27,843 nt of DNA from a virus. Its lineage: Duplodnaviria; Caudoviricetes. Made by a program: the position numbers and the translations under genes. Below are positions 684-27,843 of this stretch, piece by piece; the stretch's first letter is position 1, and every line of letters starts with the position of its first letter. The notes beneath the pieces were generated by a model. The model was given only the letters and a program-made list of their open reading frames with translations, made no database searches and had not been told where the DNA came from. The stretch lies in IMG/VR virus record IMGVR_UViG_3300030397_000179, positions 1-27,843 of that record, one strand, 5' to 3'.

Positions 684-1552
684 TCCCTCCTTAAGGAATT
701 AGTAGCCATATCCCAACTGGTGATTAAAGTTTTGCCCCCCTCTACAATGTCAACCCATTGATCGATCCGCTCTACCATAAATCGACCTACAGATTCGTGA
801 CCTGTACATAAAATATTTCCACACCGTACAGGGATTTGAAAATAGTTATTATTTTGGAATTGATTGTTATTCCGAGCCAATGAACCTTGTAGAGTTAAGC
901 CAGTATCATACTTTTTGCGCTTCATTGGATTCCGTAAAATGTTGTACGCCTCATTGATTTTGATGGTCATCTGTTCGGCGTCACTATCACTATTATGATC
1001 AGGATGATAGCGAAGTAGCATTTTACGCCATGCTTTTTTAATGTCTTTTTGATCAATGTTTTGCTGAATATTTAACAGTGTGTAGTAAGTGCTGATGTTT
1101 GGTGAATCCTTGCCGGTAAACCATTCTTTTAAAACCAATTCGGGAAAAACAACTGACCAGTTTAACCCACCAGGAATATAAGATATATCCATTCCATATT
1201 TGCGAGTGGTTTTTATTTCATGTACAACACCACCCAACGCTGATAATTCACCACCCCTATCTTTAATCGATCCAATATATTCAACCCGAATCATACGCTG
1301 TTCAGATGTTACGGCCGTTTTTTGTTGAATGCTTGAAATATCTAAATCAACCCCCAATTCATCTTTTACTAAATCACTCAAAATGTCTAGGTAATTCTTA
1401 TCAACAATCCAACATTTAAATTTGTTATCGACATAATGCGGTCGCCTTGCATTAGCTGGTATTTGTTGTTTCAGTCGATTGATTAGATAAGGGTCATAGC
1501 TGGAATAAAACTCCACACTAGAGCCACTATTTTTTACCCTTGCCCATTTCAT
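674..1552 (-). CDS. J-domain (DnaJ-like) protein with extra N- and C-terminal domains
   Basis: YYTLLNI...DIKKAWRKMLLRYHPDHN...INEAYNILRNPMKRKKYD is a canonical J-domain with an intact HPD motif. Confidence 0.9.
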   Translation of the reverse strand: MKWARVKNSGSSVEFYSSYDPYLINRLKQQIPANARRPHYVDNKFKCWIVDKNYLDILSDLVKDELGVDLDISSIQQKTAVTSEQRMIRVEYIGSIKDRGGELSALGGVVHEIKTTRKYGMDISYIPGGLNWSVVFPELVLKEWFTGKDSPNISTYYTLLNIQQNIDQKDIKKAWRKMLLRYHPDHNSDSDAEQMTIKINEAYNILRNPMKRKKYDTGLTLQGSLARNNNQFQNNNYFQIPVRCGNILCTGHESVGRFMVERIDQWVDIVEGGKTLITSWDMATNSLRREWV

Positions 1553-1715
1553 TTTTTATTCCATCAAGATTGCTGACAAAGAGAAATACAATACAAGTTA
1601 TCACATAAATAAGCACAATTTCCCATAGGTGATTACGCTCTATAGTAACTGCTATTAAAAAACCCGTAGAGTACGCCCAAAGTTCGTTAAATACATCCTT
1701 AATCAATCGTTTCAT
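1527..1715 (-). CDS. Small membrane protein
   Basis: 62 aa with hydrophobic segments; overlaps both neighbours in operon fashion. Confidence 0.55.
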   Translation of the reverse strand: MKRLIKDVFNELWAYSTGFLIAVTIERNHLWEIVLIYVITCIVFLFVSNLDGIKNEMGKGKK

Positions 1716-2428
1716 TTCATCCCACCTTTACACAATTCCCAAAACTCGCAATAGTTTGATGAGCATTTCCACGTAGTTGGATTAGGAACATGCTGCCCTG
1801 CCCTCATGGAGTCGGATACAACACCTATAAGGTTAAACAGCCCTAGTACATCTTCAACCGTTCGCCATGTTTCCAATACCTGTACATCAGGGTTTTTTGT
1901 TTTGGTGAAAATGTGATATTCAAACTTAATCGGAAAATCTGACGTTTGAATCATGCCCATTTTGTGCATGCCGGCAATGTAGAAAGTTGCTTGCAAATCT
2001 TTATCTGCTTGTGCCTGTGACCATTTGCGTTTGCTTGTTTTAAAATCAACTGGTGTGCCATCTTCTAAAATTGCATCAATATAACCAATAATGGGCAATT
2101 CACTCTGCGGGATTGTGAGCTCAAATTTTAATTCAGATTGTTTGATTTCAAGACCTTGTAGGTGTGCTTTAATTGGGGTTGATTCAGACATTCTAGATAG
2201 AGCGTGGTAGTTCTCTTCACTCTGCATAGAAGTGTCCAATGACTCAAGAAAGGCTTCATCGATCGGCTGTAGTGTACCAGCTACAAGGTTAATCATTTTA
2301 TGCCATGCCGAACCAAATAATAAAGCATCATTTTTTTCTGATTTAATTTGATCAATATAACGATACCTCCAATGACGTTGACACATCAAATAATTTTGAA
2401 TAGATGAGTATGACAGATGGTCAATCAT
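1712..2428 (-). CDS. PD-(D/E)XK exonuclease (RecB/AddB/Cas4-like, probable Fe-S cluster)
   Basis: HLSYSSI...C, GSAWH, GYIDA...VDFKT, QxxxY and C-terminal KCSSNYCEFWELC (one plus three Cys). The start was moved to the ATG at 2428 (AAGAGG SD, ATGA overlap with the upstream gene); the ORF is open to 2467. Confidence 0.88.
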   Translation of the reverse strand: MIDHLSYSSIQNYLMCQRHWRYRYIDQIKSEKNDALLFGSAWHKMINLVAGTLQPIDEAFLESLDTSMQSEENYHALSRMSESTPIKAHLQGLEIKQSELKFELTIPQSELPIIGYIDAILEDGTPVDFKTSKRKWSQAQADKDLQATFYIAGMHKMGMIQTSDFPIKFEYHIFTKTKNPDVQVLETWRTVEDVLGLFNLIGVVSDSMRAGQHVPNPTTWKCSSNYCEFWELCKGGMK

Positions 2429-2616
2429 TTCGGCCTCTTTTCCAAACCACTCTTCAACTGTTTCCATTTGTTATGTGTAATATATCTTCCTGTTGGCTCA
2501 TATCCGCTAATGTTTAACTTTGGTTTATCTTCAAACCAAGTCCATTTTTCAATGTCATTTAAAGCTAGCCAATTAGCCCATTCAGGCGCATCATTCCAAT
2601 TCGGTTTTTGGTTCAT
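2425..2616 (-). CDS. Small Trp-rich phage hypothetical protein
   Basis: PNWNDAPEWANWLA...WTWFEDKP; GGAGA SD before the ATG at 2616. Confidence 0.65.
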   Translation of the reverse strand: MNQKPNWNDAPEWANWLALNDIEKWTWFEDKPKLNISGYEPTGRYITHNKWKQLKSGLEKRPK

Positions 2617-3334
2617 AATTTTTCTCCAGATATACAACCATTTCTTCTATAGAACCATTCGTTTTGGAAGATGCTTCAAGAACATTGTCAGGATCATACT
2701 TTGCAATCAAGCTCTCCCATGTCGGTGAAATCTCACCTGTATCCTGATCAATAGTAACTACCTCGGACTGATTAGACATTTCACCACTGACATAGACTGA
2801 TTGCATAAAAATATCGGGGCAAAACCGCTTATAAGCTCGTGATGTCGCCCTATTGAGAAGCATATCAATAGGGTATTTTTTGTAATTCTCTTTATCCTGT
2901 AGTCCGGCCGCTTTGACATCATCCCAAGTGAATGAAGCTTTTCCAATTTCAACCATTTTGACAACATCTAGCTTTTTAACAAAATTTTTGTTTTCATCAT
3001 ATTCTAGCAATTCCGTTTTACCTAAAATTGTTATGATGCATTCTTTATCAGTCAACTTTTCAATGTGATAATCATAATCAGGATGCTTGCGTATTTGTGC
3101 CCGAATAACTGTCCCTTCCACCTCTACACGGCCATTCACTGTATACAAACCACCATTTACGGCAAGTGATAAAGGTAGATCGTTTTCAAAACAAAACAAT
3201 AGATGCTTTGCAATCTTGGCACGTTCTGTAACTGCTCTAGGCTCTACAGTTTCGCTTATTGCTCTGATCATATCCCAATTTGCGGGATTCATTTCACGTT
3301 GTGTGGTTAATTCATTCATCCGTTTCATTCCCAA
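2591..3334 (-). CDS. RecT/Red-beta-like single-strand annealing recombinase
   Basis: LYTVNGR...SFTWDDVKAAGL..KENYKKYPIDML..RATSRAYKRFCPD...VY..GEM resembles phage RecT-family motifs, and the gene lies near an exonuclease. The start may be 3328 or 3319. Confidence 0.7.
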   Translation of the reverse strand: MGMKRMNELTTQREMNPANWDMIRAISETVEPRAVTERAKIAKHLLFCFENDLPLSLAVNGGLYTVNGRVEVEGTVIRAQIRKHPDYDYHIEKLTDKECIITILGKTELLEYDENKNFVKKLDVVKMVEIGKASFTWDDVKAAGLQDKENYKKYPIDMLLNRATSRAYKRFCPDIFMQSVYVSGEMSNQSEVVTIDQDTGEISPTWESLIAKYDPDNVLEASSKTNGSIEEMVVYLEKNYEPKTELE

Positions 3335-3548
3335 CTTCTATATATTCAGCTATTCTATACCTAAAATTTGTCACTCTTTTTTCAAGGGAGATAAAGCTTT
3401 TTAACGTATGCGGATTCAACTTAGCTTTTATCAATTGATCTTTCGCATTAAACAAAGCTGTCTCAGCTTTAATTATATTTACTATTGCCAATTTTGTATG
3501 ATAGCTATCCATTATTACCATCCTCACTTGCAAAAAACAATCGACCAC
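3312..3548 (-). CDS. Hypothetical protein
   Basis: Fills the gap between the ERCC4 and RecT-like genes with overlaps; the real start is probably the ATG at 3512. Confidence 0.5.
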   Translation of the reverse strand: MVDCFLQVRMVIMDSYHTKLAIVNIIKAETALFNAKDQLIKAKLNPHTLKSFISLEKRVTNFRYRIAEYIEVGNETDE

Positions 3549-4209
3549 CCAAAGAGTTAATTATTTTTTCCTTTGTTTTATATCCAATTCCAGAAATATT
3601 TTTTGCTGTTAAATCTGTAAGCCATTCCAGGCCCTTACCTAAATTCCCGAATTCACTAGCAATCTTTTGCGCCTTATCTGAACCAATACCGTCAAACGCC
3701 ATATACACTTGCTCATGTGGGCTAAATACATACGATTGTCGCCTAGGTGCGACTTTTACATCATTGCGCGATCGATTTATAAGCCGTTCGACCGCTCCGT
3801 GAAAGTCGGGATCATAAACTACAGTACAGCCCATTTCTTGAATGGAAGTTAGGGAACCTTGTAGAGATGACCATTGCCAACCAGATAGATTTTTCTCCCC
3901 CCGATGCACCTCGTGAAGAAAGTGATCATCAAGAGGCTCAAACCAACCTTCAATCACAACATAACCCCACTCATTACCCTCTACAAGGTCATTCACCTGA
4001 TTAAACAATCGCCCATCTCGCAATGAGTCTAGATAATCACGTGGTGTTTTGCGCTCAATGTTCAGAATAGAGCCGTCAGGACATGATACCTGAAAATCGA
4101 AAGGTAGGGATTTTACAAGGCACAAAATACCCATTGCCTCAAATCGCTCTTTGTGTTCTGGATAGTGCGAGTGTTCATTGCTATCAATAGTTATTATTGT
4201 GCCTCGCAT
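3505..4209 (-). CDS. ERCC4 (XPF/Mus81-type) structure-specific nuclease with helix-hairpin-helix motifs
   Basis: IDSNE, DF, IERKTPRDYLDSLRDGRLFNQ, VVIEG; HhH-like FDGIGSDKA and ISGIGYKT. Confidence 0.9.
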   Translation of the reverse strand: MRGTIITIDSNEHSHYPEHKERFEAMGILCLVKSLPFDFQVSCPDGSILNIERKTPRDYLDSLRDGRLFNQVNDLVEGNEWGYVVIEGWFEPLDDHFLHEVHRGEKNLSGWQWSSLQGSLTSIQEMGCTVVYDPDFHGAVERLINRSRNDVKVAPRRQSYVFSPHEQVYMAFDGIGSDKAQKIASEFGNLGKGLEWLTDLTAKNISGIGYKTKEKIINSLGGRLFFASEDGNNG

Positions 4210-4218
4210 AATTATCTC

Positions 4219-4950
4219 CTACCAAGGCAATAAGTCTGGATTTGCTTTTAATGCAATTTCTTGCATTGCTGTATCCTCTAAATTGATATTTGCCAGCATA
4301 GGCATTTCTGACACTCTCTGGGCAAGTTCAGCATGATCCTTTGATTGTTTTGCTAATGTTTCAAGGAATGGGATTGCTTGCTCTAGTGAGATAGCTTCAA
4401 CTTTCTTTTCTTCGATTTTGGAACCTTGAGGCAATTCACCTTTATGTTCATCATAAGCCGCTTGACAATCATCTGCATTTTCAAAAACTTCTAACAGTTT
4501 GATACCACGGATAGGTTTTTCAACACCATCAGAGTTTTTGTATTTACGAATGACTGGCGTCTCATATTTGAAAAACCTCGACCCCTCTGTTAGGCCACGT
4601 AAAAATTCATTGATTTCTTGTCGTTTGTGCGGGTCATTGGGATCAACACCTAAAATTTCACCTGCCGAATTAAAGATTGATTTCCAATCGTCCGACCATA
4701 CAGGAGATTGATTTTTAAATGTCTCAAATTTTGCTCCAATAGGGAAATGTTGATACTCATAAACTACATGAACCCTCTTCCCATCCGCAATAATAGCTTT
4801 GTGTTCTTCATCATTTGAGTCAAATTCAACCCAATCTCGCACACCTGCCATACGGATACCCTGAAAACCGCGATAGATTACAAACTCACCAAAAAATACG
4901 TCACTTGGTGGTGCTGTTTCTTCTTTTCCAAATGGGTCAAAGTTAGTCAT
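4219..4950 (-). CDS. Hypothetical protein (acidic; possibly ssDNA-binding/recombination accessory)
   Basis: 243 aa ORF in the recombination operon; function inferred from context only. Confidence 0.5.
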   Translation of the reverse strand: MTNFDPFGKEETAPPSDVFFGEFVIYRGFQGIRMAGVRDWVEFDSNDEEHKAIIADGKRVHVVYEYQHFPIGAKFETFKNQSPVWSDDWKSIFNSAGEILGVDPNDPHKRQEINEFLRGLTEGSRFFKYETPVIRKYKNSDGVEKPIRGIKLLEVFENADDCQAAYDEHKGELPQGSKIEEKKVEAISLEQAIPFLETLAKQSKDHAELAQRVSEMPMLANINLEDTAMQEIALKANPDLLPW

Positions 4951-5140
4951 TATCTGCCACCTCCGCTAATTTATCGTTTAAGAATTCATATAAGTCCTGC
5001 CCAATTGCTGATGTCATTTTCCCGCTCGCACGAGCAAGAGACTTTAAATCAATAGTCGACGCTATGGTTAATTGGATAACTAAGGGGTCTTTCTGCAGTG
5101 GGTCAACTCTTTTACTTTTGATTTGTTTCACTTGAATCAT
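4943..5140 (-). CDS. Hypothetical protein
   Basis: 65 aa, overlaps both neighbours. Confidence 0.55.
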   Translation of the reverse strand: MIQVKQIKSKRVDPLQKDPLVIQLTIASTIDLKSLARASGKMTSAIGQDLYEFLNDKLAEVADND

Positions 5141-5351
5141 TTGTATCTTCCTTTTTGTCTTGAATTTCTGCCATCGTTAATTGGCGATTGACATGATTTT
5201 GATATTGCTGATCGCATTCATACCCAATAAATAGCCGATTAAGGATTACAGCACGCAAAGAAATATCCTTTTCGTTCGCTTCATTTTTAATCATTTCAGC
5301 TAAATTTGGGGGGATGCTCAAATTATAATTCCAGTTTCCATCATTTACCAT
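5112..5351 (-). CDS. Ribbon-helix-helix (Arc/CopG-like) DNA-binding protein
   Basis: NYNLSIPPNLAEMIKNEANEKDISLRAVILNRL fits the RHH strand-helix-helix pattern. It is the first gene after the promoter and has an AGGAG SD. Confidence 0.75.
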   Translation of the reverse strand: MVNDGNWNYNLSIPPNLAEMIKNEANEKDISLRAVILNRLFIGYECDQQYQNHVNRQLTMAEIQDKKEDTNDSSETNQK

Positions 5352-5372
5352 AAGTTTTCTCCTATCGTTTTA

Positions 5373-5400
5373 TATGTCATTTTAATACAAATATGACATA
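5373..5400. promoter_or_regulatory. Inverted-repeat operator TATGTCAT-N12-ATGACATA overlapping the promoter
   Basis: Perfect 8 bp arms at 5373-5380 and 5393-5400 bracket the -10 element. Confidence 0.65.
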
Positions 5401-5407
5401 CTGTCAA
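5379..5407 (-). promoter_or_regulatory. Sigma70-type promoter of the early/recombination operon
   Basis: Minus strand reads TTGACA (5407-5402), 17 bp, TAAAAT (5384-5379). Confidence 0.85.
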
Positions 5408-5432
5408 GCTGTAAACCTTAAATTTTTCCAAC

Positions 5433-5460
5433 AAAAAACCGCCTCACGTGGAAGCGGCTT
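5433..5460 (-). terminator. Rho-independent terminator ending the late operon
   Basis: Minus strand AAGCCGCTTC-CACGT-GAGGCGGTTTTTT, about 40 nt after the last tail gene. Confidence 0.8.
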
Positions 5461-5502
5461 AGTGGGTGATTGACCTACAAGATCAAACCATGAGCAATTC
5501 TA

Positions 5503-5928
5503 TTATATATAATATGCCAAAACGTACAAGGATATTCTTATTGTGTCATCGTATTCTATGTAAACATCGCCATTAGAATCACAGGGGACAATACCTTGTA
5601 GGCTAATCCATTCATCATGAGAATTACCATAACCTGTATAAGCCAGCATAGATGTACTGTCGCTAGATTGCTTCTTGATCTTTACGGCCGTTATTGTAGG
5701 ATCGATAATATCCATTCTGAGCATAACCGCTCTGATATTATCCGGTACGCCAAAATCGGCAGAGAGATCGATAATACCATCATCGGCAGTGCCCTTAGTT
5801 TCATCAAACCAATCTGTAAGATTTTCCAATCTTTCAAAATGCCACTGAGGGGTATCTTGGCTTTCTAGTTGCGACAATCTTTCTTCTAGATCTTTTACAA
5901 TTCGCTCAATTCTAGCTAATTCGCTCAC
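5503..5928 (-). CDS. Small tail-tip/fibre-associated protein
   Basis: N-terminal coiled coil then a beta-rich domain; last gene of the tail module. Confidence 0.55.
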   Translation of the reverse strand: MSELARIERIVKDLEERLSQLESQDTPQWHFERLENLTDWFDETKGTADDGIIDLSADFGVPDNIRAVMLRMDIIDPTITAVKIKKQSSDSTSMLAYTGYGNSHDEWISLQGIVPCDSNGDVYIEYDDTIRISLYVLAYYI

Positions 5929-7040
5929 AAATCAAGCTCCACTTTTGACGAAATTGTCTCACGCCCTGTGCCATCAACACGAATATGTACAGCCCTGATA
6001 ACAGTATTGGCCTGAAAACCGGCATGGGATATTGTTACCTTGTCACCAAAATCCCAGTCAACCCCATAGCGGAATGATGGAGTATCAATCATAGACCCCT
6101 GCAAAGTTATTTGTGGTCTAAATTTTGCTAGTTCAGATTGGCCAACATCGTTTAGGGACTCTGTATCATCTATATCGATAAACGTTGCGTTGCGAAACTT
6201 TTCCCGCCGCCCCCAGTAGGATTGCCCAGATCTCGCAGTGTCTTCGACCTCCTCTATATTCCTATTCGCACCTTCCCCTTTGCCCCCAACATAAATATAA
6301 GATGCAACATCAGACCAATCGTACTGTAAATCCACCTCTACAAGGTTCCCATTTTCAGTACTAAAAACAACAGGATTACCAGAACCACCTACAGAACGAT
6401 CAACTCCGATTTGATTTTTGAAAAATCTTGCTTCTAAATATGTATCAGATATAGGAATTATTCCCCAAAATATTTCTGTTCCTTGATTCTTGCTGGCTTG
6501 CTGGAATTTCTTTAATATCTGAAGGAGAGGTTTCCATGCAACTTTGGATTTTATATTTGCGCCAAAATCAAAGGCACTAGCTTCATCATAGTAATTCCCA
6601 CTAATATTCCGCACGTCAGGATTAGATCCAAATGATCCTAAATTTCTACCCAATGCAATTCTGATTGCTTGCCCTATTGAATAGTCGTATTCGCTATTTG
6701 AATGCTCACTAGAGAATGCATTTATTCGCCTTTCTGTTAATCCATTTGGGCCATGCCCTTCTGTAGAAAATTGACTACCCCCTCCTCGCATCGTACTGTA
6801 ATTAAACTTTTGCAAAAATGCCACAAAGTCTAACTTTAAACTACCCCCAATGGGCTGACGATAGACATGTATGCGCCTATCTACTTGATTTGTTTCCCAC
6901 AAAGAACCTTGTAGGGGTGTGTTGAGTGCAAGAAACCCGACATCACCAGCAACTTTTACATACTCAAATTGTGTGACATTGGTGATATTTGTGATCCGAT
7001 TTCCAAGATCATCAGCATACCAAAATTCGTAGTAAGTCAT
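5925..7040 (-). CDS. Siphovirus minor tail/baseplate hub protein (ReqiPepy6 Gp37-like)
   Basis: Follows Dit; motifs YVGGKGEGANR, WGRREKF and FRYGVDWDFGDKVT are typical of this family. Confidence 0.8.
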   Translation of the reverse strand: MTYYEFWYADDLGNRITNITNVTQFEYVKVAGDVGFLALNTPLQGSLWETNQVDRRIHVYRQPIGGSLKLDFVAFLQKFNYSTMRGGGSQFSTEGHGPNGLTERRINAFSSEHSNSEYDYSIGQAIRIALGRNLGSFGSNPDVRNISGNYYDEASAFDFGANIKSKVAWKPLLQILKKFQQASKNQGTEIFWGIIPISDTYLEARFFKNQIGVDRSVGGSGNPVVFSTENGNLVEVDLQYDWSDVASYIYVGGKGEGANRNIEEVEDTARSGQSYWGRREKFRNATFIDIDDTESLNDVGQSELAKFRPQITLQGSMIDTPSFRYGVDWDFGDKVTISHAGFQANTVIRAVHIRVDGTGRETISSKVELDL

Positions 7041-8962
7041 TAGTCATCCAGTGATAAAAACGCGGCTTTAAATTTCATATTTGCAGTTACAACAGTACTA
7101 CCACTCAAGGTCTGTTCATCTACAAACAAATTGATGATATTTTCACTCGAGCCTGATGAGTTGTCAGGGTTTAGGAAAAATTGACCTTGATTGCTATTTT
7201 CAAGAAATGCATCATTTACATTACCAAACTTTGATGATGTTGCTTTTATTTCTTCATGCGGTCTTAGCTCTAGCGTCAATGTTTCCCCATCTAGTAGTGT
7301 GTAGTCCATATAGATAATTGCGCCAGTCGTTTCATTTTTTAATCTTTTTATTATACACCTTGTAACAGTGTCCCCACTGTCATCTCTTGAGATTTCTACA
7401 TAAGGATAAGCTGGAGCAGTTCCGCTATAATTGATGGTGTCACCACCAGAATGGTTAACTTGAGCCGATGCTGTATCAAATCCAACAAAAACATCATCTC
7501 CTTCAAATGCGATAGCAGATAATCCCCCGCTATTAGGCTTGATATCTATATCTGCCCATGTGGAGCCATTCCAAATTGCCCCTCCCGTTAAATGAGATAG
7601 TGATGAAATAGTAAAACTACCAAAAACATAGATTAAATTACCATTGACCACTATTTTGTTAACATCACTATCCAATGTGTCATTGCCAACTTTTGCAAAT
7701 GATGTCCCATTCCATGTCACAAATCTATCGCTAGATAAAATTGTGCCGCCAGCCACATAAAGTAAACCGTCGGCACCAAACGCCATAGCATTCACATCGT
7801 CATCTAGTCCGGAATTCATAGCTGTGTATGCCGATCCATCCCATTTCACAATGTAATCAGCATCAGTAATATTCCCAAACGATGTAAAATTACCACCAAT
7901 ATAAACATTGTTTTGCGCGTCACTGCTTATCGCGTCTACACTAGTAATTGATGCGCTTCCAGTAGTTGGATCAGCCATTGCATTCCATGCCGATCCATCC
8001 CAGTACGCCACATAATCAGCATTAGTCACACCACCTATTGAAGTCCCGCTAGTACCAATATAAATATTCCCATTTCTAGCTGTATGAATTGTGTTTACAT
8101 CTGAGGGTGAACCAGTTCCCATTGCTGACCATGATGTCCCATCCCAACGGGCAATTCTATCAGCATTACCAACTCCACCGGCATTTGTAAATCCACCCCC
8201 AACAATTAAATCGCCATTCGCCGCAATTTCTAAGGCGTTAACTGCTCCGTTCAAACCCGTAGAAAGTGCAGAAAATGTGTCAGTTGACATATTATAACGT
8301 ACAATGTTATCAAAATTGCCATCCCCATTTAACGAAGTGAACGAACCGCCAAAGTAAATGTAAGTTCCATCTGATATGATGGCATTGATGGAAGTAAAGG
8401 CACCAGCCGCGCTATTATTTCCCAAATCTGACCAGATTCCCGCCTCTTTTCCTGCTGTTCCTCTGATCGTCGAAATTCTGTCACTAGGATCGAGTGACTC
8501 TGTTGTCTCACTAGTGGCATAGAACAATGGATCGGGCGATAAAAAACGCAATGGTATATCTGTTTCCGTCCACTCTATAGGAATACCATCTTGCAATGCC
8601 CCATCATAATAAGCTGAAATTTCTTTGTCTGTTGTCCCTCCAGTATATCTAATTGCCCTTGCTGGCAATTGCTCATTAATGTTTGTGACATAGCTCATAA
8701 TAGCTTTGATCAAATCGTGCCGTTTGTCATGCACATCTGCTACAGATTCGCCCCCCTCTGCGACAATAGAGCCTTGTAGAGTCCAAACCCTTTGATCTAT
8801 TTGTCTATTGTTATAGCTGGAGCCAAATTGTAAGGGAAGTGGGTTTGTAATATTTCGTATAGGTGGCAACCCTGTCCCAAACGATGAAGAGACTATAAAA
8901 TTAAGGTTGTCCCTAAAATCAACAAAAGAGCCATCTATCTCTATTTTCCAGTTACTAGGCAT
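7040..8962 (-). CDS. Distal tail protein (Dit) with inserted beta-propeller repeats
   Basis: Follows the tape measure gene. It has Dit-like FLSPDPLFY and NYSGTAPAYP around repeated xYxGGxFT...hhxWDGSxWxxM blades. Confidence 0.8.
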   Translation of the reverse strand: MPSNWKIEIDGSFVDFRDNLNFIVSSSFGTGLPPIRNITNPLPLQFGSSYNNRQIDQRVWTLQGSIVAEGGESVADVHDKRHDLIKAIMSYVTNINEQLPARAIRYTGGTTDKEISAYYDGALQDGIPIEWTETDIPLRFLSPDPLFYATSETTESLDPSDRISTIRGTAGKEAGIWSDLGNNSAAGAFTSINAIISDGTYIYFGGSFTSLNGDGNFDNIVRYNMSTDTFSALSTGLNGAVNALEIAANGDLIVGGGFTNAGGVGNADRIARWDGTSWSAMGTGSPSDVNTIHTARNGNIYIGTSGTSIGGVTNADYVAYWDGSAWNAMADPTTGSASITSVDAISSDAQNNVYIGGNFTSFGNITDADYIVKWDGSAYTAMNSGLDDDVNAMAFGADGLLYVAGGTILSSDRFVTWNGTSFAKVGNDTLDSDVNKIVVNGNLIYVFGSFTISSLSHLTGGAIWNGSTWADIDIKPNSGGLSAIAFEGDDVFVGFDTASAQVNHSGGDTINYSGTAPAYPYVEISRDDSGDTVTRCIIKRLKNETTGAIIYMDYTLLDGETLTLELRPHEEIKATSSKFGNVNDAFLENSNQGQFFLNPDNSSGSSENIINLFVDEQTLSGSTVVTANMKFKAAFLSLDD

Positions 8963-11691: not shown

Positions 11692-11889
11692 AATAACCTT
11701 AAATTTTTCTGCGCGTTTTTCGTATATACATCTCGTTGCCTAATTCGGTCAAATTTCGTGTTCTAAGCGTTTTTGTCAATTCTAGGTCTAAACATAAAGG
11801 GGGTAAGCTATAAATTGATTTTTAGTTTATGTCATTCCTATGTCATTTTTGTATAGACGCATGCAATAAGCCGCTTAGAGATGAAATTT

Positions 11890-11971: not shown

Positions 11972-11985
11972 CTCATTATTTGGCA

Positions 11986-17674: not shown

Positions 17675-17693
17675 AACATAATCCTATATGAAG

Positions 17694-19391: not shown

Positions 19392-19582
19392 TATTTAGCA
19401 TGTTTCCCAAAATCAGCCAATCCTTGACCAATAATATAAGCTACTACAGCCCACATGAACTCTGGCAAGACCTCTTTGTACTGCTCTAGATCTGGAATAG
19501 CAACTACCAGAACAGATACAATAACACCAAAGACCATCATCCAAAACTTTTTGCTAGTCAAGTATTCTTTTAAATTATCCAT
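19391..19582 (-). CDS. Probable holin
   Basis: 63 aa, two TM segments, LTSKKFW...AYIIGQGLAD; coupled to the endolysin gene. Confidence 0.8.
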   Translation of the reverse strand: MDNLKEYLTSKKFWMMVFGVIVSVLVVAIPDLEQYKEVLPEFMWAVVAYIIGQGLADFGKHAK

Positions 19583-19584
19583 TT

Positions 19585-20067: not shown

Positions 20068-22226
20068 TCGCAGTTGTACCCCTTACAAGCTAAATTTCTT
20101 GATTGGGGGTAAAAACCCACTTGCGCCAATGATAGCCATTCAGATTTTGAAGATTTACGGCCGTTAAACCGTAAGCAATCTTCGCAATGCTCCTCTGTGT
20201 TCCCAAGCCTCCAAGTCAGTTCCTCCTCACGTCTACCAACAATTAAACCGCGATTGAAAAACAACCTTGCAGCGTTTGCCCACATCAAAACACGACTAGC
20301 AATAGACCCGCCCTGATCATCTTGTATATTTTCTATAGTCGCCTTTTGTGAAAAAATAGAATCAACAAAACCTTGTAGGTGGGACAACTCTTCTGTTAAT
20401 AGTGATTCAAGCTCAACCAATTCATCTTCTGTGAAATCTTCATCTAAATCGATGCCTACAGCCTCGCGATATATAGATTCCAATTCGTCAGATACCACTG
20501 ATTCAAATTCATCTCTAAAGCCATCTTGCCCCATAGATTTTGCCCCATCTACAAGGTCAACTAATTTTTGGGTGTAGTCCTCTAGTAAATCATCTATCAA
20601 TGCCTTGCGTCTAGGTGCATTTTTAAAAGCAATGTCTAATTTATTTTCCCTGGTGAGATAATGAGAGTCAAAATCGTTTATATCTATTTGCTCATAGTTT
20701 CGCGCTTTTAGCCATCTAATATACTGGTTTTTTTCATCCCGCATATCTAATAAATCTAAAAACTTTTGCTTAGAATCGTTCTCCTGTGCGTTTTCTAGTA
20801 CTTCTCTTTGAGCAACGGCGTTTGTGTCGGTCTGGATTGGCTTATCTACCTTTTCTGGAATGAGCCTTTTTGCTACATCTGGGTTAACACCAAGGAATGC
20901 ATCATACATATTGATAGCATTATCACGGGTGATAACATTCTCCCCAAAAGTATTAATAATCTTTAGTGCTGATTCAATTTGAATGCCGTTCAGCAGTGTT
21001 TTTTCTTCTCCAATATCATCACTTCCCAAAATATCCAATTGATCTTTTATGACTTCTTCCTTCAATTCCTTTGGAATATGAAGTCCTAGCATGTTTTCTA
21101 TTTCTTTTTTCGCATACCCAACATCGAAATAGTTCTTTGCAGCTTGGCTGCGTTCAACTTCATCAGTTTGCATGACTCGCAATTGTTGAGGTAAAGCAAC
21201 AATAGAATAGCCCATTGGATTTAATTTTTGTTCGTTCAGGTCTGCATAAATCCATCCGGTTTCAGGAATAATTGTTTCTTCAATATACCCTCTATCATCT
21301 CCATCTTTAGTAGCACGGTTAACGCCCTCTGGTAAAAGTTTAGATAGTGGCACACCTAAACCAACGGCGATATCCTTTTTCTCATCTTGACTCAAAACAT
21401 TATCGCGTAAATCTTTTACACCTTCTCCAATCTCAAGAGTTTCAAAGTCGCCGCGAATAACCTCGGTAGCATGTGCATTACTCACACCAGAAAACACCCG
21501 TTTCCACCACTCCTTAATACGTGGCACCTCACTTGGTTTAATCCCATCCTTGTACTTCAGCAATGTGGCCTTGATTAGGCCACGATTAAAATAACCTTGT
21601 AGAAATAAATCCAGTGCGCCAACAACACCAGCGTTTTGAAATACAGCTTTGGCAGGATAGTTTTTTGCCCTCCCAATTTCTACCGCATGATCGGGGTACC
21701 AAAAGTAAAGGACATCCTCAATTTCCAACTCTCTTGGTACTGCGTTTGGTGGCTCATCACGCCAAAACCCAAGTAATTCACCATAAGGTTGCATCGAATC
21801 AGTTCGCAATCCCCCTCTGCCAACAATACCGTTTAAAATAGGATGAACTGACCAAGGTAAGTACCAGCGCAAGGGCATGTCACCGCCTAACACATTTTTC
21901 CTTTGAGAGAGGTATGCCTCTCCGCCCAATATGGAAGCGACTTCAATTGATCCTGAAAAGCGAGGCCATTTAAGAATCCACTCTAATTCTTTTGGTGGGG
22001 TATTCTGAGGTGTTACACCGTCATATTCATAAACAACAGATTCGCCTTTGCGGATCTCAAAAGGCATAGCGGCAACACTGTTCCCTCGAATATTTACGCA
22101 ACGATACAACCAAGCAATTGTGGAATAAAGATGATTGATATCAACATCGCTATCGTTATCAGAGTGAATAGTCCAAACTTCTTCAGGAAAATTTGGAGCG
22201 CCTAGCGATTTTATCCTTATAGTCAT
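20049..22226 (-). CDS. Portal protein with C-terminal minor-head (Mu gpF-like) domain
   Basis: WLYRCVNIRGNSVAAMPF, YFNRG, IAVGLGVPLSKL and NRAT are HK97-type portal motifs. The C-terminus has LTWRLGNTEEHCEDC...LACKGYNCDC. Confidence 0.85.
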   Translation of the reverse strand: MTIRIKSLGAPNFPEEVWTIHSDNDSDVDINHLYSTIAWLYRCVNIRGNSVAAMPFEIRKGESVVYEYDGVTPQNTPPKELEWILKWPRFSGSIEVASILGGEAYLSQRKNVLGGDMPLRWYLPWSVHPILNGIVGRGGLRTDSMQPYGELLGFWRDEPPNAVPRELEIEDVLYFWYPDHAVEIGRAKNYPAKAVFQNAGVVGALDLFLQGYFNRGLIKATLLKYKDGIKPSEVPRIKEWWKRVFSGVSNAHATEVIRGDFETLEIGEGVKDLRDNVLSQDEKKDIAVGLGVPLSKLLPEGVNRATKDGDDRGYIEETIIPETGWIYADLNEQKLNPMGYSIVALPQQLRVMQTDEVERSQAAKNYFDVGYAKKEIENMLGLHIPKELKEEVIKDQLDILGSDDIGEEKTLLNGIQIESALKIINTFGENVITRDNAINMYDAFLGVNPDVAKRLIPEKVDKPIQTDTNAVAQREVLENAQENDSKQKFLDLLDMRDEKNQYIRWLKARNYEQIDINDFDSHYLTRENKLDIAFKNAPRRKALIDDLLEDYTQKLVDLVDGAKSMGQDGFRDEFESVVSDELESIYREAVGIDLDEDFTEDELVELESLLTEELSHLQGFVDSIFSQKATIENIQDDQGGSIASRVLMWANAARLFFNRGLIVGRREEELTWRLGNTEEHCEDCLRFNGRKSSKSEWLSLAQVGFYPQSRNLACKGYNCDCFMEF

Positions 22227-22559
22227 TTAATTTACCATATCAATATAGAGAACGGCATACCAAGCATCACCATCAATAGTGAAACTAAACACCATCTTAT
22301 ATCGCTTTCCCGCAGTAGCGGCGCTTGCAACAAATTTAGAAGAAGTAAAGACGCCCGATGAAATACTAGGCGACCCTGTTAACAGCGATCCTGCTAAATC
22401 ACTACCAAAGGTGCCATCAGATTGACGCAAATGGATGGTATTCGCCTCATCTGCATAAGTCCCTGATGGAACATTGTTAGTCAAAGTGAATTCGTAAGAA
22501 TACCCTTCCCCGATATGACGCTCCACTGGGGATTCTTTTAGCTCAATTTTACTAGGCAT
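22227..22559 (-). CDS. Hypothetical virion-associated protein
   Basis: 110 aa, beta-rich, in the structural cluster. Confidence 0.6.
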   Translation of the reverse strand: MPSKIELKESPVERHIGEGYSYEFTLTNNVPSGTYADEANTIHLRQSDGTFGSDLAGSLLTGSPSISSGVFTSSKFVASAATAGKRYKMVFSFTIDGDAWYAVLYIDMVN

Positions 22560-23264
22560 TTAGCCACCAGAACTAACAGTCAATTCATAAGTGAATTCAA
22601 TCGAATCGCCATTTACAACATTAATAGCTGAGAACACGTGGCGATCCATTAACTCACCAGATGTTGAAGCATTGAATAATCCATGCTCTGTAATTGCTTT
22701 TGTGGTCGTGTAAGAAATTGTACCAACTGAGCGGTAAATGTTTGCTGATGCGCCCTCAGTTTGTGTACCAGTTGCACGGGATTCGCCATCAGTTGTTTCA
22801 ATATCAGTGTCACCAATAGCGGCGGCAGTTGTACCCACTCCTGAATCATGAAATTTAAAATCCCCCCAAGTTGAGTCCTCTGTCTGGAGTTGATCAACCA
22901 TTTCATTGACAAACGCAGTGGTGACTACGCGACGCTCGACAACGCCATAATTTACCCACTGCCCAAATTGTCTCGCCCAATCCAGCGCGTTTCGCTCATC
23001 TTCATATTGCATCAACTTGAACATTTCACGCTGACTTTCAGTCAGTCGCAAAACACGAATTGATAATTGACTTGTCAATGTGGGAATACCAAACAGTTTT
23101 GAAACACCCCTTGCACTCCAATTCCCAATCAAACCCTGCCAATACGCGAAACGCAGTCTATTTTTCAATCGCCACGACAAAGGAGCATCAATATGTTTCT
23201 CTAATTTACTAGCTACAAGGTTGCCCTCAAATGCAGTATTACTATTTATAGATAAATTACCCAT
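22560..23264 (-). CDS. Probable virion structural protein (fibre-base-like)
   Basis: GVGTTAAAIGDT...ITEHGLFNASTSG.LMDRHVFSAINVVNGDSIEFTYELT resembles fibre-anchoring domains. GAGGTGG SD before the ATG at 23264 (ORF open to 23327). Confidence 0.65.
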   Translation of the reverse strand: MGNLSINSNTAFEGNLVASKLEKHIDAPLSWRLKNRLRFAYWQGLIGNWSARGVSKLFGIPTLTSQLSIRVLRLTESQREMFKLMQYEDERNALDWARQFGQWVNYGVVERRVVTTAFVNEMVDQLQTEDSTWGDFKFHDSGVGTTAAAIGDTDIETTDGESRATGTQTEGASANIYRSVGTISYTTTKAITEHGLFNASTSGELMDRHVFSAINVVNGDSIEFTYELTVSSGG

Positions 23265-23472
23265 TATCCACCTCGCGAATATTAGAGACAAAATCAATAT
23301 CAAACAATTCGCCACTCCACCCATCAATCTCTATAGTAAGAGTTTCGCCACTTTTTAAAATAACACCAGATGGAACAATGAACCCAGCGCGATTATTCCC
23401 ATTATCTTGACGGAATTCAACGGGGATTGTTTTCCCATTCTTTTTAACCTCAACAGATTTAATATTCATCAA
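23257..23472 (-). CDS. Hypothetical protein
   Basis: 71 aa, overlaps both neighbours. Confidence 0.55.
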   Translation of the reverse strand: MMNIKSVEVKKNGKTIPVEFRQDNGNNRAGFIVPSGVILKSGETLTIEIDGWSGELFDIDFVSNIREVDNG

Positions 23473-24953
23473 TCTCTATCCTTTAAATTCAATATATTAG
23501 TACGCTTACGCATAGTCAATATATTAGTACGTTTAAATAATGTCAATACCCTGGATGTTACAACACCTACACCGGCTTGCAACTCTGTAGCCAAAGAGCC
23601 AGCAAACGAGATGGCCCCAACAAGTATTTTTTTTGTCTTTAATGCCAACCCCCCAACAAAAGAAAGCGAACCTTGTAGAGTTACCGGTATCTTATAGTTG
23701 GCGATTCCGCTTAGGGAAAGTATCCCAGATATCGCCTTACTAGCAAAACTCACAAGAGTACCAGGGAGTGACAGTACACCCCCTAACGATTTCCCAACTT
23801 TTTGAACCAGCCCGCCAGCAAACGAGATAGCCCCACTAATTGAGGTTGTAAACACAATTTTTTGTGAAGATGTGCCAATAGATGAAAGCACGCCGGTAAC
23901 AGATAGGGCGGCCCCCTTGATTAAATCACCCGAGAAGCTAATAGCACCTACAAGGTTATATTGAATTTTTCTGATAACAGATCCCGTAAATGACAACGAT
24001 CCATCAACTAACTTTTGGGTTTTGTTTACCAAGCTACCACCAAACGACAAGACACCTGCAATAGATTGCGTGAATACAATTTGTTGAGACAGAGTGCCAC
24101 CAAGCGATAAGACCCCAGATAAAACTTTAAACACTCCCTCACTCAGACCTCCTAAAAAGGATACCGTGCCAGAAGAAATTTTTTGGGTATTTCGTGAAAT
24201 AGCCCCACTACTTGATAGTACCCCCGCCAATGCTCTCGTTAATTTATTTACCAGAACCCCAGATGTTGACAAAGTACCTACAAGATTTGATAGTATTTTT
24301 AATACCACTGCCCCAATAAATGACAACGATCCTGTATAAGTTACGGCCGTTTTTTTGCCCACAGCCCCACTTGTTGATAATGACCCTGCTGTTGACTGGT
24401 TGTAAGTGGTTCCTCCCGATTCGGTCCACTCAATATAAAGATCAGCAGGATCGTCCCCGCTGTCTTCTGAATTAACCCTAAATGTTTTTGTTGCATTTGA
24501 TTTTGGTGTAAAAATAACCATTACACCTGCGCCACTTGCTAAGCCCTCATGAGTATCTATTAGATCTTGCATAGGGGTGACAAGCGATGGAGAATTAACA
24601 GGACTTGCCCCTAATCCATCTTGAGTCCAATTAACATTGTTTCCTGTTAGTGTTCGTGTTGATATCTCGGCTGTAGTTGTGAAGTCATCACAATCTGCGC
24701 TATCCTCGAAGTCAAGATCTCCATTAACGTCATCAGCGCCAGTTGAATCAGGATCAAGCGTGATATAGCAAGTATCGATTGTGGCACCATCAGGGATCGC
24801 GCTTGTTAGTTCAAAATAGAATCCACCTCTAAACCTTGCCCCGTTTACGGTGGCATGGTCATCCATTCTGACAATACTATTTGTATCATTGAAAGATGAT
24901 CCTGTAATATTTTCATGAGCATCTTCAATAACATTTAACGTTTGATTAGGCAT
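23469..24953 (-). CDS. Fibre-like protein: acidic N-terminal globular domain plus about 15 GxhSxxG repeats
   Basis: 18-20 aa repeats such as AGSLSTSG, TGSLSFIG and VGAISFSG. The N-terminal domain ends PADLYIEWT, resembling DNRLRE-like adhesin domains. Confidence 0.7.
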   Translation of the reverse strand: MPNQTLNVIEDAHENITGSSFNDTNSIVRMDDHATVNGARFRGGFYFELTSAIPDGATIDTCYITLDPDSTGADDVNGDLDFEDSADCDDFTTTAEISTRTLTGNNVNWTQDGLGASPVNSPSLVTPMQDLIDTHEGLASGAGVMVIFTPKSNATKTFRVNSEDSGDDPADLYIEWTESGGTTYNQSTAGSLSTSGAVGKKTAVTYTGSLSFIGAVVLKILSNLVGTLSTSGVLVNKLTRALAGVLSSSGAISRNTQKISSGTVSFLGGLSEGVFKVLSGVLSLGGTLSQQIVFTQSIAGVLSFGGSLVNKTQKLVDGSLSFTGSVIRKIQYNLVGAISFSGDLIKGAALSVTGVLSSIGTSSQKIVFTTSISGAISFAGGLVQKVGKSLGGVLSLPGTLVSFASKAISGILSLSGIANYKIPVTLQGSLSFVGGLALKTKKILVGAISFAGSLATELQAGVGVVTSRVLTLFKRTNILTMRKRTNILNLKDRD

Positions 24954-24956
24954 AGT

Positions 24957-25055
24957 TTAATTTAAAGCAAAAACAAAAAACAAGACACCAACAAGTGCAA
25001 CAATACTAGAAACCAAAGCCACAAGTGCCCACTTCATTTCATCATCCATGTTCAT
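24957..25055 (-). CDS. 32 aa single-TM peptide
   Basis: Hand-translated: MNMDDEMKWALVALVSSIVALVGVLFFVFALN. TAATG overlap with the terL stop; fills the gap to the next gene. Confidence 0.55.
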   Translation of the reverse strand: MNMDDEMKWALVALVSSIVALVGVLFFVFALN

Positions 25056-26299
25056 TATAAGAATGCTGGTTGATAACTGGTGATGGCATGAGTCATTAGT
25101 GCCCGAGCTATCACCGTGTCATCATGCACACCACTTGGTGCGTTATATATCGGTCTACCTAAATGATTAACTTTCATTTCATACGCCTCTGCCTCTGCCG
25201 TTGCAATAGGAATATTCAAGTATTGCATTTCTGTACGCTCATAAACAAGTTTTTGATTTTCTATAATCATGACCTTGCTTTGGTGAGTAGTCGCAAAACC
25301 TTGTAGGGGGTATCCCTCATTCTGTAGCACTTCTAGGTTAGGCTCTCCTATACTGTTTAGTTCTGCCAAACCATCAGCCACGCCCCAATAATTCAGCAAT
25401 TTCCCTATACGATCACGTTGATATATATAATCGATTTTATTAAATCTGTCCAGCGCGACCTCGCATTTGCAATCCATGCACCCAATAGAAACCACCGTGT
25501 AATCCTTATGCTTCCCCCAATCAATGCCCGCGACTAGCGTATGACCCTCATGATCTTTGGGTTCAGCATCTATAGGAGCATTCAAACATGCGCCAATGTT
25601 ACGGAATACAGCCCCCTCGTTATCGAGAAAGTTGGCCATGATCTCTTGACTATAATCATCCTCAGTCATATCTTCAGATATCTCTTCGAGCGCTTCTTGA
25701 CTTAAATAGGGGTTATCGTGACTAGTAAATTTAAAGGATTCGTACCTTTCATCCCCTCGATCTAGGCCACGCACATAGAGAGAGTGGAAGTGATTTTTAC
25801 GGTTGGGGGTTGATATAAACCACGCCTCCCCATTGGTATCCAGCATCATAGGAGCCCCTACAACATCCCAAACGTCCGGTTTCATAAAAGCATATTCGTC
25901 AAAAATAAGGATGTCACCCCAACCACCGCGCCATGTGTCCGCATCGTAAGCCGTTTGTGCCGAGATAATGGCCCCACTGTCCTGATCCTTCTCATGCATC
26001 CATTTGATATATTTTTCAGTTTCATTTTTGTAAATATGGCCCGACTGTATAAGAGGTTTTAGATATTCCTTGATCTTGCCCCAATATTGAGATAGCTGCT
26101 TTGACACAGGGGTGCCGTAAATTATCCTATGGCCCATCAAGAATTTTTGCACACTATACGAACTAAGGATCGTAGTTTTTCCCGCACGTCTACCAGCGCA
26201 GACAATTTTACGCTTAGATTCACTGTCAAGTATCAAGCGTTGTTTTTGATGGGGGGTAGGTAATGTTATGTCTATGTCCACATAAGGATAATAACACAA
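25055..26299 (-). CDS. terL: Terminase large subunit
   Basis: Walker A CAGRRAGKTT, Walker B LIFDE, coupling motif ISTP, nuclease GIDWG and HDDTVIA. The start may be the GTG at 26281. Confidence 0.95.
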   Translation of the reverse strand: MCYYPYVDIDITLPTPHQKQRLILDSESKRKIVCAGRRAGKTTILSSYSVQKFLMGHRIIYGTPVSKQLSQYWGKIKEYLKPLIQSGHIYKNETEKYIKWMHEKDQDSGAIISAQTAYDADTWRGGWGDILIFDEYAFMKPDVWDVVGAPMMLDTNGEAWFISTPNRKNHFHSLYVRGLDRGDERYESFKFTSHDNPYLSQEALEEISEDMTEDDYSQEIMANFLDNEGAVFRNIGACLNAPIDAEPKDHEGHTLVAGIDWGKHKDYTVVSIGCMDCKCEVALDRFNKIDYIYQRDRIGKLLNYWGVADGLAELNSIGEPNLEVLQNEGYPLQGFATTHQSKVMIIENQKLVYERTEMQYLNIPIATAEAEAYEMKVNHLGRPIYNAPSGVHDDTVIARALMTHAITSYQPAFL

Positions 26300-26324
26300 A
26301 ACCCCCTGCTATTTGCAAGGGGCC
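26293..26324 (-). terminator. Intrinsic terminator immediately upstream of terL
   Basis: Minus strand GGCCCCTTGC-AAATA-GCAGGGGGTTTTGTGTT. Confidence 0.6.
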
Positions 26325-26382
26325 TGTTACAAAGGAGGAACTTCTTGTGTGTCTCATGAGGAGGAGGTGCAGATGCACCATC

Positions 26383-26411
26383 AGTGTAAACCGTCCCGAG
26401 TTATATGTCAA
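26383..26411 (-). promoter_or_regulatory. Candidate late promoter
   Basis: Minus strand TTGACA (26411-26406), 17 bp, TACACT (26388-26383). Confidence 0.6.
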
Positions 26412-26454
26412 GGTGGTGTGTAGTGGTGGTGTGCAGTCGAGTGATGTACACTAC

Positions 26455-26658
26455 TTAGTAATGGGGTGGGGGGTGCTTTAACACATAATCAACGGGATGG
26501 GGGATTGGACCTTCCCGTATTGTATGCCCCCTATCTTCATATTCCCCATCGATGGTCAAGCGGAATGCATGCAGAAACTCACAATCCAAACAAACCATTT
26601 GAACCTCATCTTGAGATACCCTTTTGAGATAATACTTGTGTGCAGGTCGAGTGTACAC
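26455..26658 (-). CDS. Small hypothetical protein with CxxC and several His
   Basis: 67 aa, VCLDCEF; GTG start directly after the upstream stop. Confidence 0.5.
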   Translation of the reverse strand: MYTRPAHKYYLKRVSQDEVQMVCLDCEFLHAFRLTIDGEYEDRGHTIREGPIPHPVDYVLKHPPPHY

Positions 26659-26659
26659 G

Positions 26660-26812
26660 TTACCCCTTCAGACGCTTTCTAAGTTTCGATAAGATACCCG
26701 TGCCCTTCTCTTCTTTGTTCGTGCGCGTAACTATTGGATCTCGCTTCGGTTGACCCATTTCTTTTACAATTTTCTTGAAATATTCTCGTTTATTTTCTTC
26801 TCTTTGTGGCAT
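26660..26812 (-). CDS. Small basic hypothetical protein (50 aa)
   Basis: Hand-translated: MPQREENKREYFKKIVKEMGQPKRDPIVTRTNKEEKGTGILSKLRKRLKG; GAGGT SD. Confidence 0.55.
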   Translation of the reverse strand: MPQREENKREYFKKIVKEMGQPKRDPIVTRTNKEEKGTGILSKLRKRLKG

Positions 26813-26815
26813 AAT

Positions 26816-27250
26816 TTACCTCTTCAATTCCAAAGATATTGCATCGATAATCTCTCTATTATAAATAATTGATTGATTAGATTGAAAAACAGGAAGAATA
26901 GACAATCCAAATAATACCTTTTTTAACTTTTTTCTGCCTATATCAAAATGAGTCATCAATGCCCCAAAGCTAATAAAAAGGTCAGACTTTGGAAAAATTT
27001 TATTATATTCTGGTTGATATAAAGTTATATACATCGCTTCAAAATTGTTCAACTCATTTGAATCAACTTCTAAAAAATAATATGAATCAAAATCTTTATC
27101 TCGCGCATGAGCATGTATACGCTCAACCATATTTTTTGATTGTCCCACATAAACAACACTATTATCTTTAATTAAAAAATATATACCGCATAATTGAGAG
27201 TACCCACATTTGTTTTCAATGATCTTGTCTAGCCCTATCACTTTAACCAT
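26816..27250 (-). CDS. GIY-YIG nuclease
   Basis: GIYFLIKDNSVVYVGQS..MVERIHAH...E...YQPEYN. Confidence 0.88.
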   Translation of the reverse strand: MVKVIGLDKIIENKCGYSQLCGIYFLIKDNSVVYVGQSKNMVERIHAHARDKDFDSYYFLEVDSNELNNFEAMYITLYQPEYNKIFPKSDLFISFGALMTHFDIGRKKLKKVLFGLSILPVFQSNQSIIYNREIIDAISLELKR

Positions 27251-27843
27251 CCCACAGCCTTTATACGGCCGCTTTCCGTTATCACAGGTACGCTATTCTT
27301 TGTTTCATTTTTGTGAAGCAGTCCAATGGCCTTTAGTTGCGCTACAAGGATTTGATAATTATCATCTGACCAGCCCCTTTGCCGAGCCTGCCGCAAACTA
27401 AACTCTACCCTGTCATTCTCCAGGCAATCCTTGAGCCAATGTCTAAATGCATTTGGGCTTGGCTGGCTAATAACTTGAGTACCGAGTCCATTGCGCAAAT
27501 TTAACGTAACAGTATTTTGATGATAAACGGCCGTTTCTTTTTTAGGCTCACGATAGACAATTTTCTCACCAATACCATCTACAAGGTTAACCCATTCGAT
27601 AGCACGCTCTTTTAATGAATAGACTATGCCCACGCCTGCTATGCCAAGTCCAGCCACAAAAGAAAAAAAAAGAGTGTCAATCATAGGGATATTCAGCGAG
27701 TGTAAAATCGCCATGCTCAAAGATGCCCCTACGAGGAAACATCCCCATGAAAACCTTGTAGAGTAACCCCATACAAAGTCAATGTAGCTAACTGGTAACG
27801 GCCGTTTATTCACTTGCGCTGGACTATCGGATATTGTTCTCAT
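27238..27843 (-). CDS. Membrane protein with two TM segments and a soluble C-terminal domain
   Basis: Hydrophobic stretches at about aa 33-52 and 57-77. The ORF begins at the window edge, so the start is uncertain. Confidence 0.6.
   Translation of the reverse strand: MRTISDSPAQVNKRPLPVSYIDFVWGYSTRFSWGCFLVGASLSMAILHSLNIPMIDTLFFSFVAGLGIAGVGIVYSLKERAIEWVNLVDGIGEKIVYREPKKETAVYHQNTVTLNLRNGLGTQVISQPSPNAFRHWLKDCLENDRVEFSLRQARQRGWSDDNYQILVAQLKAIGLLHKNETKNSVPVITESGRIKAVGWLK

Follow-up and report, generated by a model that had tools for sequence, protein, structure and literature searches.

The DNA analysed here (hereafter the window) is a 27,843-nucleotide stretch of a tailed phage, IMG/VR record IMGVR_UViG_3300030397_000179, positions 1 to 27,843, and our subject is a nine-nucleotide word, ACCTTGTAG, that recurs along both of its strands. 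The window is a partial siphovirus genome with every gene on the minus strand, in the order terminase, portal, amidase, capsid, tail and tape measure, then ERCC4 nuclease, exonuclease, DnaJ-domain protein and a cut vWA gene. In plus-strand coordinates, the structural genes (tail, Dit, tape measure, head-tail adaptor, amidase, portal and terminase large subunit) span 5503..26299, with the tail tube at 11986-13011 and the capsid at 15656-17674. The replication/recombination block (674..4950) encodes a 243-amino-acid protein with no assigned function (4219-4950), the ERCC4 nuclease (3505-4209), a weakly RecT-like protein (2591-3334), a PD-(D/E)XK exonuclease (1712-2467) and the DnaJ-domain protein (674-1552), and is followed by the vWA-domain gene that is cut by the contig end (2..382). 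A GIY-YIG nuclease is encoded as well.

Two strand-specific arrays of the word

Direct counting gave 16 exact copies of ACCTTGTAG on the plus strand (884..27761), starting at 884, 2153, 3856, 5593, 6906, 9130, 10552, 11891, 13634, 15037, 18200, 20370, 21594, 23670, 25298 and 27753, and 13 on the minus strand (286..27587), starting in plus-strand coordinates at 286, 2281, 3981, 6338, 11927, 13109, 15111, 16555, 17368, 20549, 23213, 23948 and 27579. These 29 copies represent a ~90-fold excess over the 0.3 expected under a Markov-3 model. A first-pass annotation of this DNA had claimed that the word is evenly spaced on each strand, with plus-strand gaps never below 1.2 kb, and our recount of the window reproduced all 16 plus positions and all 15 gaps (minimum 1224) together with the 13 minus copies and their minimum gap of 735 (P = 0.007), and found no overlooked exact copies that would create short same-strand gaps.

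The minimum gap on the plus strand had a probability of 3.3e-8 analytically and was reached in 0 of 200,000 simulations, and the coefficient of variation (CV) of the gaps was 0.29 (P = 5e-6); on the minus strand the CV gave P = 0.04. By contrast, pooling the two strands left a minimum gap of 36 (P = 0.35) and a CV with P = 0.024, and when the strand labels were shuffled over the 29 positions both minima were reached in 1e-5 of trials. Evenness is a property of each strand taken separately. It persisted when the permutation was restricted to positions where the word is compatible with synonymous coding (P = 1e-5 for plus and 0.003 for minus), a null that is partly circular because the compatible sites probably arose from the same selection. 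ACCTTGTAG ranked first for evenness in a set of 1638 words (5-9 letters, 10-30 plus copies), the runner-up standing at 4e-4. Mean same-strand gaps were ~1.8 kb (plus) and ~2.3 kb (minus), a strand-specific spacing on the scale of replication fragments.

Two variant spellings accompany the exact copies: GCCTTGTAG at 8771..8779 on the plus strand, which is the spelling preferred by a sister phage (G001, see below) and whose aligned codon matches a sister copy, and TCCTTGTAG at 27342..27350 on the minus strand. When the eight-nucleotide core CCTTGTAG is counted, the variant at 8771 brings the shortest plus-strand gap down to 359 (P = 0.02), although the CV remains at P = 3e-5, and a further copy apparently lies ~20 bases past the left end of the window, ~900 from that at 884, in contigs that are possibly the source of this DNA. 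The 1.2-kb floor is therefore not absolute: it stands for the exact plus copies of the window, which are exceptionally clean in this respect, and fails on the minus strand of the sister, where one gap measures 96 bp.

At 11891-11935 a short intergenic inverted repeat is bracketed by a plus and a minus copy separated by 36 bp, and the sister has a comparable close pair at 13454/13481. Convergent pairing of plus and minus copies within 300 bp was considered as a further feature (6 versus 1 in the window) and rejected because it was not repeated in the sister (3 versus 3) or the wider family (35 versus 51).

Selection on the word in genes and in relatives

Fifteen of the plus copies lie within genes, to which they are antisense, and one is intergenic; 13 of the coding copies fall in an L-Q-G frame and two in an x-T-R frame. 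On the minus strand, copies in coding sequence translate as x-L-V-[E/A/G/D], and that at 286 sits in the cut vWA frame, which was not counted as a gene. For the core CCTTGTAG, 27 of 31 copies are within listed genes. The tripeptide L-Q-G occurs 18 times in the window proteins against 2.1 expected (a ninefold excess), and 14 of these 18 sites use the exact codons of the word, compared with ~11% predicted by codon usage. Both results back the earlier preference for selection over mutational bias, and the DNA word itself is under selection. Its context is one-sided, R-CCTTGTAG-N-KKKK with a C-poor 5' side; in the 13 copies outside listed genes (one of them inside the cut vWA frame), G or T fills 51 of the 52 flank bases.

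The four L-Q-G sites that lack the word (plus strand, 6096, 9403, 10918 and 17865, spanning 6096..17873) may be decayed copies; the distance from each to a live plus copy is 273-503 bp, and at 6096 the sister carries a live copy at the aligned codon. Two additional "unused" plus sites were gene-edge artefacts and were dropped. All five unused or variant L-Q-G sites lie at most 503 bp from a live copy, but this closeness is weak because 58% of the contig is equally close (chance ~0.07). At the DnaJ site, the eight commonest triplets in 26 homologs (LEA in 9, LQS in 3, and others) exclude LQG, whereas at the ERCC4 site QG is ancestral; some sites therefore came about through altered residues, others where the peptide already suited the word.

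The sister phage G001 is syntenic with the window, with protein identities of 30-71%, and holds 35 copies of CCTTGTAG (11 plus and 24 minus), 28 of them with the preceding G; the G/T-rich 3' flank is common to both phages. Its plus strand is modestly even (minimum gap 1021, P = 0.005). Five of 18 window copies in orthologous genes occupy the same aligned codon in the sister, so that density is kept while positions turn over. The short relatives L081, L083 and L084 have 2, 4 and 1 copies, and L086, which belongs to the tail clade of the window, has none in 21 kb, indicating that the word is not tied to the tail genes. When IMG/VR was scanned for the paired motif, at least 120 loci were returned, and none of the 80 with flanks was a phage rich in the motif on both strands; L242, with 60% GC, has 11 copies on one strand.

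Association with one primase type and the host question

A homolog of the DnaJ-domain protein led to a prophage in G113 that carries, in this order, ERCC4, exonuclease, DnaJ, vWA, a D5 helicase and a Prim-Pol with a CHC2 zinc finger. The DnaJ-domain protein and a stand-alone vWA protein (window 2-1552) form a conserved pair in the replication block of most related phages. Scanning with the vWA protein returned eight viral loci, of which four carry Prim-Pol-CHC2, three a fused Prim-Pol-PriCT-D5; the eighth matched only distantly. Three of the Prim-Pol-CHC2 phages are rich in another word, TACTGAG (44 copies in G413, 29 in G415 and 24 in G417), and the fourth, G416, has TACCGGC instead. No strong word was found in the three fused-type phages (G411, G412 and G414), although vWA, DnaJ and ERCC4 are all present in them.

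We then took loci selected by the primase, 38 that were full-length and at least 8 kb, or 26 after dereplication, and defined the family word as TACTGAG, its one-base shift or TACTCAG. This word was the top 7-mer in 19 of the 26. With a significance cut of lp < -6, a TAC-core word was found in 14 of 26 Prim-Pol-CHC2 loci (11 of 22 without the four discovery loci) versus 2 of 137 controls (1/75 tail relatives, 1/53 unrelated loci and 0/9 loci with other Prim-Pol; Fisher 2e-11, the kin among these loci not being independent); the sole positive tail relative, L129, itself carries TACTGAG. At least 4 copies of TACTGAG per 10 kb were present in 22 of 29 primase loci, from both large clades of the primase tree; their helicases are of D5 or VapE type, and their terminases and capsids belong to several families. 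CHC2 is present in the linked primases, with no match to PriCT. In 24 of the 29 loci a vWA homolog precedes the primase by 1.1-5.6 kb, and sample contigs extend 6.6 kb beyond the left end of the window. TACTGAG is the word whose co-variation with primase type was seen across phages, and TACAAGG is the form carried by the window and its sister. Searching annotated phages with the primase gave partial matches only.

In the G113 prophage, the primase is present without a dispersed word. The primase clade formed by this prophage, L361 and L362 shows a weak excess of AGTGGGA (22 versus 5.5 expected), strongly one-stranded in L361 and L362; since this candidate was picked post hoc, it was not counted as an alternative word of the clade.

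The words of the two groups share an anatomy. Read on the opposite strand, the window has C-TAC-AAGG-T, the sister C-TAC-AAGG-C and the family n-TAC-TGAG-Y, with TAC, a G at +7, mostly a pyrimidine at +8 and a C/A-rich 5' side (C/A fraction 0.82 in window and sister versus 0.52 at other TAC; 0.59 versus 0.50 in the family). Of the family strands, 29 of 33 were more even than the random median (Fisher 2e-7; pooled-strand minimum gap, Fisher 0.04). Repetition on relatives thus upheld the evenness overall, family strands being under-dispersed, but at a strength that in the sister and most single strands falls short of that in the window. In G413 the word is near-palindromic (TACTSAGTA, 44 copies) with more biased positions downstream, and one such site may serve both strands.

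Tail relatives were found in metagenome-assembled genomes (MAGs) of Anaerolineae, among others, which makes this class a likely candidate for the host. Among 301 genomes in the class of an Anaerolineales MAG, ACCTTGTAG was not enriched (at most ~20 per Mb versus ~1040 per Mb in the window). The window also bears a palindrome, ACGGCCGT, with 11 copies (1311..27805), 10 of them as WACGGCCGTW, which is likely a host-type iterated palindrome usable as a host pointer. Two of the 301 genomes, G058 and G250, contain 4322 and 4056 copies of WACGGCCGTW (~1 per kb) and therefore point to the host lineage; they hold 11 and 8 copies of ACCTTGTAG against 35 and 30 for backwards controls. WACGGCCGTW is frequent also in the tail relatives L032, L034, L012, L004 and L014, has no copy in the sister, and had no description in our literature search. 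The backwards control WTGCCGGCAW reached 1778 copies in the 4.5 Mb of G273, which suggests a different iterated palindrome in another Anaerolineae lineage. TACTGAG, for its part, is crowded into integrated phage regions, with 35 of 106 copies in 38 kb of G643 and 22 of 38 in 29 kb of G627, and the density of TACTGAGY inside these prophages is 30-fold and >100-fold above that in the rest of the host genome. Across the genomes searched, the word is phage-borne rather than host-borne.

Probable priming sites and competing explanations

The first-pass annotation had attributed the spacing to a strand-specific processive process, naming priming, Chi-like control of a nuclease or translocase, and protective protein loading. 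A strand-specific process agrees with the per-strand evenness in the window and, more weakly, with that in 29 of 33 relative strands, and the tie to a single primase type favours priming among the three. We consider it probable that ACCTTGTAG is the start site of the phage's own predicted Prim-Pol-CHC2 primase, an archaeo-eukaryotic primase (AEP) expected just past the left end of the window; the co-variation of the family word TACTGAG with one primase type speaks for this reading, and the expected place of the gene follows from the synteny of vWA and primase. Of 150 primase homologs 20 were looked up, and one, P0233, matched a relative's contig in size: this primase and P0048, a tail protein of the clade that holds the window, G001, L081 and L083, come from one source and are both on a 39,474-base ENA contig, a pairing made through equal contig size only. 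A helicase would unwind the genome and expose single strands, and the zinc ribbon and AEP domain would bind the word on the single-stranded template, where the primer of a new fragment would be laid. Gaps well above ~2-3 kb would leave a strand single-stranded for too long and a second site nearby would add little, so that spacing would even out per strand at ~2 kb. By analogy with known primases, the favoured template is 5'-RCCTT-GTA-G-N-KKKK-3', with GTA as the triplet and a primer starting 5'-ACAAGG; in the other orientation the template would be 5'-MMMM-N-CTACAAGGY-3' with a G/T-rich primer.

Long AEP sites and template reading by a zinc domain are already known. As described in passages of the respective papers, NrS-1 PrimPol reads an 8-nt template site plus GTG, starting its primer beside the site, and its authors propose initiation at a specific place (PMC8718748); the AEP primase of N. 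equitans recognizes an R-T-M triplet and primes at GTA, with the start opposite T (PMC10250227); and the zinc-binding domain of DnaG reads the template (PMC6163395). The GTG and R-T-M triplets are the basis for favouring GTA above. AEPs fused to zinc-binding domains have been noted in mobile elements (PMC5862659), in a paper whose main text has neither "CHC2" nor "Chloroflexi". Like NrS-1 PrimPol, the predicted enzyme would be a Prim-Pol AEP encoded by the phage that recognizes both a long (8-nt) site and a triplet on the template. Unlike NrS-1, which has a helix-bundle domain and no zinc finger, it would have a DnaG-type CHC2 ribbon and no PriCT match, its word is different, and an evenly spaced array is not described in the NrS-1 passages; the core is GTA/TAC instead of the GTG-type core of the sites that PriCT readers recognize in NrS-1 and pRN1. 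With DnaG/T7-type primases the putative reader shares the CHC2 zinc ribbon (PF01807) and Okazaki-fragment-scale spacing, but its catalytic domain is AEP (PF09250), not TOPRIM, and a site of 8-9 nt, unlike a triplet, must be written into genes.

Several observations weigh against the priming reading. The primase gene is not within the 27.8 kb of the window, which like the sister ends before the expected place, and no DNA examined carries both TACAAGG and the gene. Because loci were chosen by their primase, co-occurrence with Prim-Pol-CHC2 is perfect by construction, and among the eight vWA-found phages with a primase seen (seven plus G113) three carry the fused type. Seven of the 29 primase loci fall below the TACTGAG cut: five have none (the G113 prophage, L361, L362, L365 and L381), L357 has 3 per 10 kb, and in G416 TACCGGC takes its place. 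TACAAGG and TACTGAG differ in 3 of 7 letters, which makes their homology a matter of inference. Just 5 of 33 family strands reach P < 0.05, and the minus strand of the sister shows mild evenness at best (minimum gap 96, CV P = 0.05). The near-palindrome of G413 would also suit a dimeric binder. Finally, sites run from end to end on both strands, whereas under theta replication from one origin the strand bearing them would be expected to change at the origin; a single-origin model leaves this unexplained, and forks in both directions would be required, as in recombination-driven or restart-heavy replication.

Competing explanations account for parts of this evidence. Another protein of the same module (a helicase loader, vWA, DnaJ or an uncharacterised DNA binder) might load directionally at the word for restart, recombination or protection; we judge this unlikely, although 24 of 29 loci pair vWA with the primase, a dimer would fit the near-palindrome of G413 and the word is missing from several primase-bearing phages, because G411, G412 and G414 have vWA, DnaJ and ERCC4 yet no word, and the helicase type varies while the word stays. 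Site-specific nicking of packaged DNA, known from Pseudomonas phage tf and phiKMV-like phages, is a distinctly unlikely function of the word. The likeness is that of an exact, short, asymmetric, TAC-containing word with many copies per genome: in passages of PMC3517423, the tf motif TACT/RTGMC and the phiKMV motif CCTA/CTCCGG both contain TAC, TACTG is common to tf and the family word, and 14 nicks in 46 kb give tf a similar density. ERCC4 and GIY-YIG nucleases are moreover encoded in the window. However, tf-, T5- and phiKMV-type sites are described there on one strand only, unlike the word (16 plus and 13 minus copies in the window, 11 and 24 in the sister), some opposite-strand copies are 36-180 bp apart, where nicking would risk breaks, and ERCC4 occurs in word-free relatives too. 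Speculatively, nick sites would be compatible with priming if the nicks were unsealed fragment junctions.

Chi, uptake words and highly iterated palindromes are enriched in host chromosomes, and the word resembles them in being dispersed and over-represented inside genes. That the phage has copied it from a host signal (a Chi-like nuclease site, an uptake sequence or a defence-evasion mark) is nevertheless quite improbable: the word is non-palindromic and on both strands, and the phage does share a palindrome with some Anaerolineae-class genomes, but it is ACGGCCGT that fits the host pattern and not the 9-mer, which is not enriched in the 301 genomes, including the two of the likely host lineage. 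Together with the concentration of the family word in prophages, this disfavours the host version of the Chi-like control proposed earlier. Mycobacteriophage stoperators are transcription-control operators oriented with transcription, and the many exact, asymmetric copies within and between genes recall them; an operator is very improbable, given that 16 copies are antisense and 13 sense in a one-strand transcription unit and that per-strand evenness is not expected of operators. Mutational or codon bias with chance evenness has almost no chance of being correct. The weaker evenness in the sister and most family strands speaks for it, but the counts have already largely refuted it, with the ~90-fold word excess, the ninefold L-Q-G excess, a flank bias that extends outside genes, and an evenness that survives the look-elsewhere check over 1638 words.

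More broadly, and as a tentative proposal, a large group of Chloroflexota phages may use a chimeric primase, AEP plus DnaG ribbon, that reads an 8-9-nt word, with the priming map written into both strands at the cost of changed protein residues; divergence of the primase would have been accompanied by switches of the word (TACTGAG, TACAAGG, TACCGGC), each with its sites rewritten across the genome, and the unexplained TAC nick motifs of tf- and phiKMV-like phages might belong to this class of site. Fragment starts are usually seen as a loose choice among frequent triplets. If priming is the function, these phages hard-code them, so that fragment length and the cost of unprimed DNA become readable from a genome; a small primase (~290 amino acids) with a predicted long, switchable specificity would come with natural variants for mapping its specificity residues, and the purpose of site-specific phage nick motifs would gain a testable handle. 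Our literature search, with subscription papers and supplements outside its coverage, returned nothing relevant on the word or on evenly spaced priming arrays.

Single-protein scans with the capsid and terminase found no viral relatives, and scans with the 243-amino-acid protein and with a DnaJ alignment returned only the sister or bare DnaJ domains. Other words were enriched in further loci, namely CTCCTAACG (L040), GTAGGAAC (L019), CCAGCGAGA (L113), ACAAACTCAC (L089), TACCCCA (L198), AAACGAAC (L204) and TACCCCCT (G414, 12 copies). The G113 prophage holds a repeat-rich gene, likely of beta-propeller type, between its replication and lysis/tail genes (L310:5268-7127). GGATCC, CAGCTG, CCATGG and CCSGG are missing from the window and GCWGC, CCWGG, GATGCC and AAGCTT are depleted, which looks like avoidance of host restriction sites. 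In two runs, a contig matched both ends of the tape-measure stretch 9812-10571 at ~85% with 827 different letters between, and this variant probably represents a co-occurring related phage.

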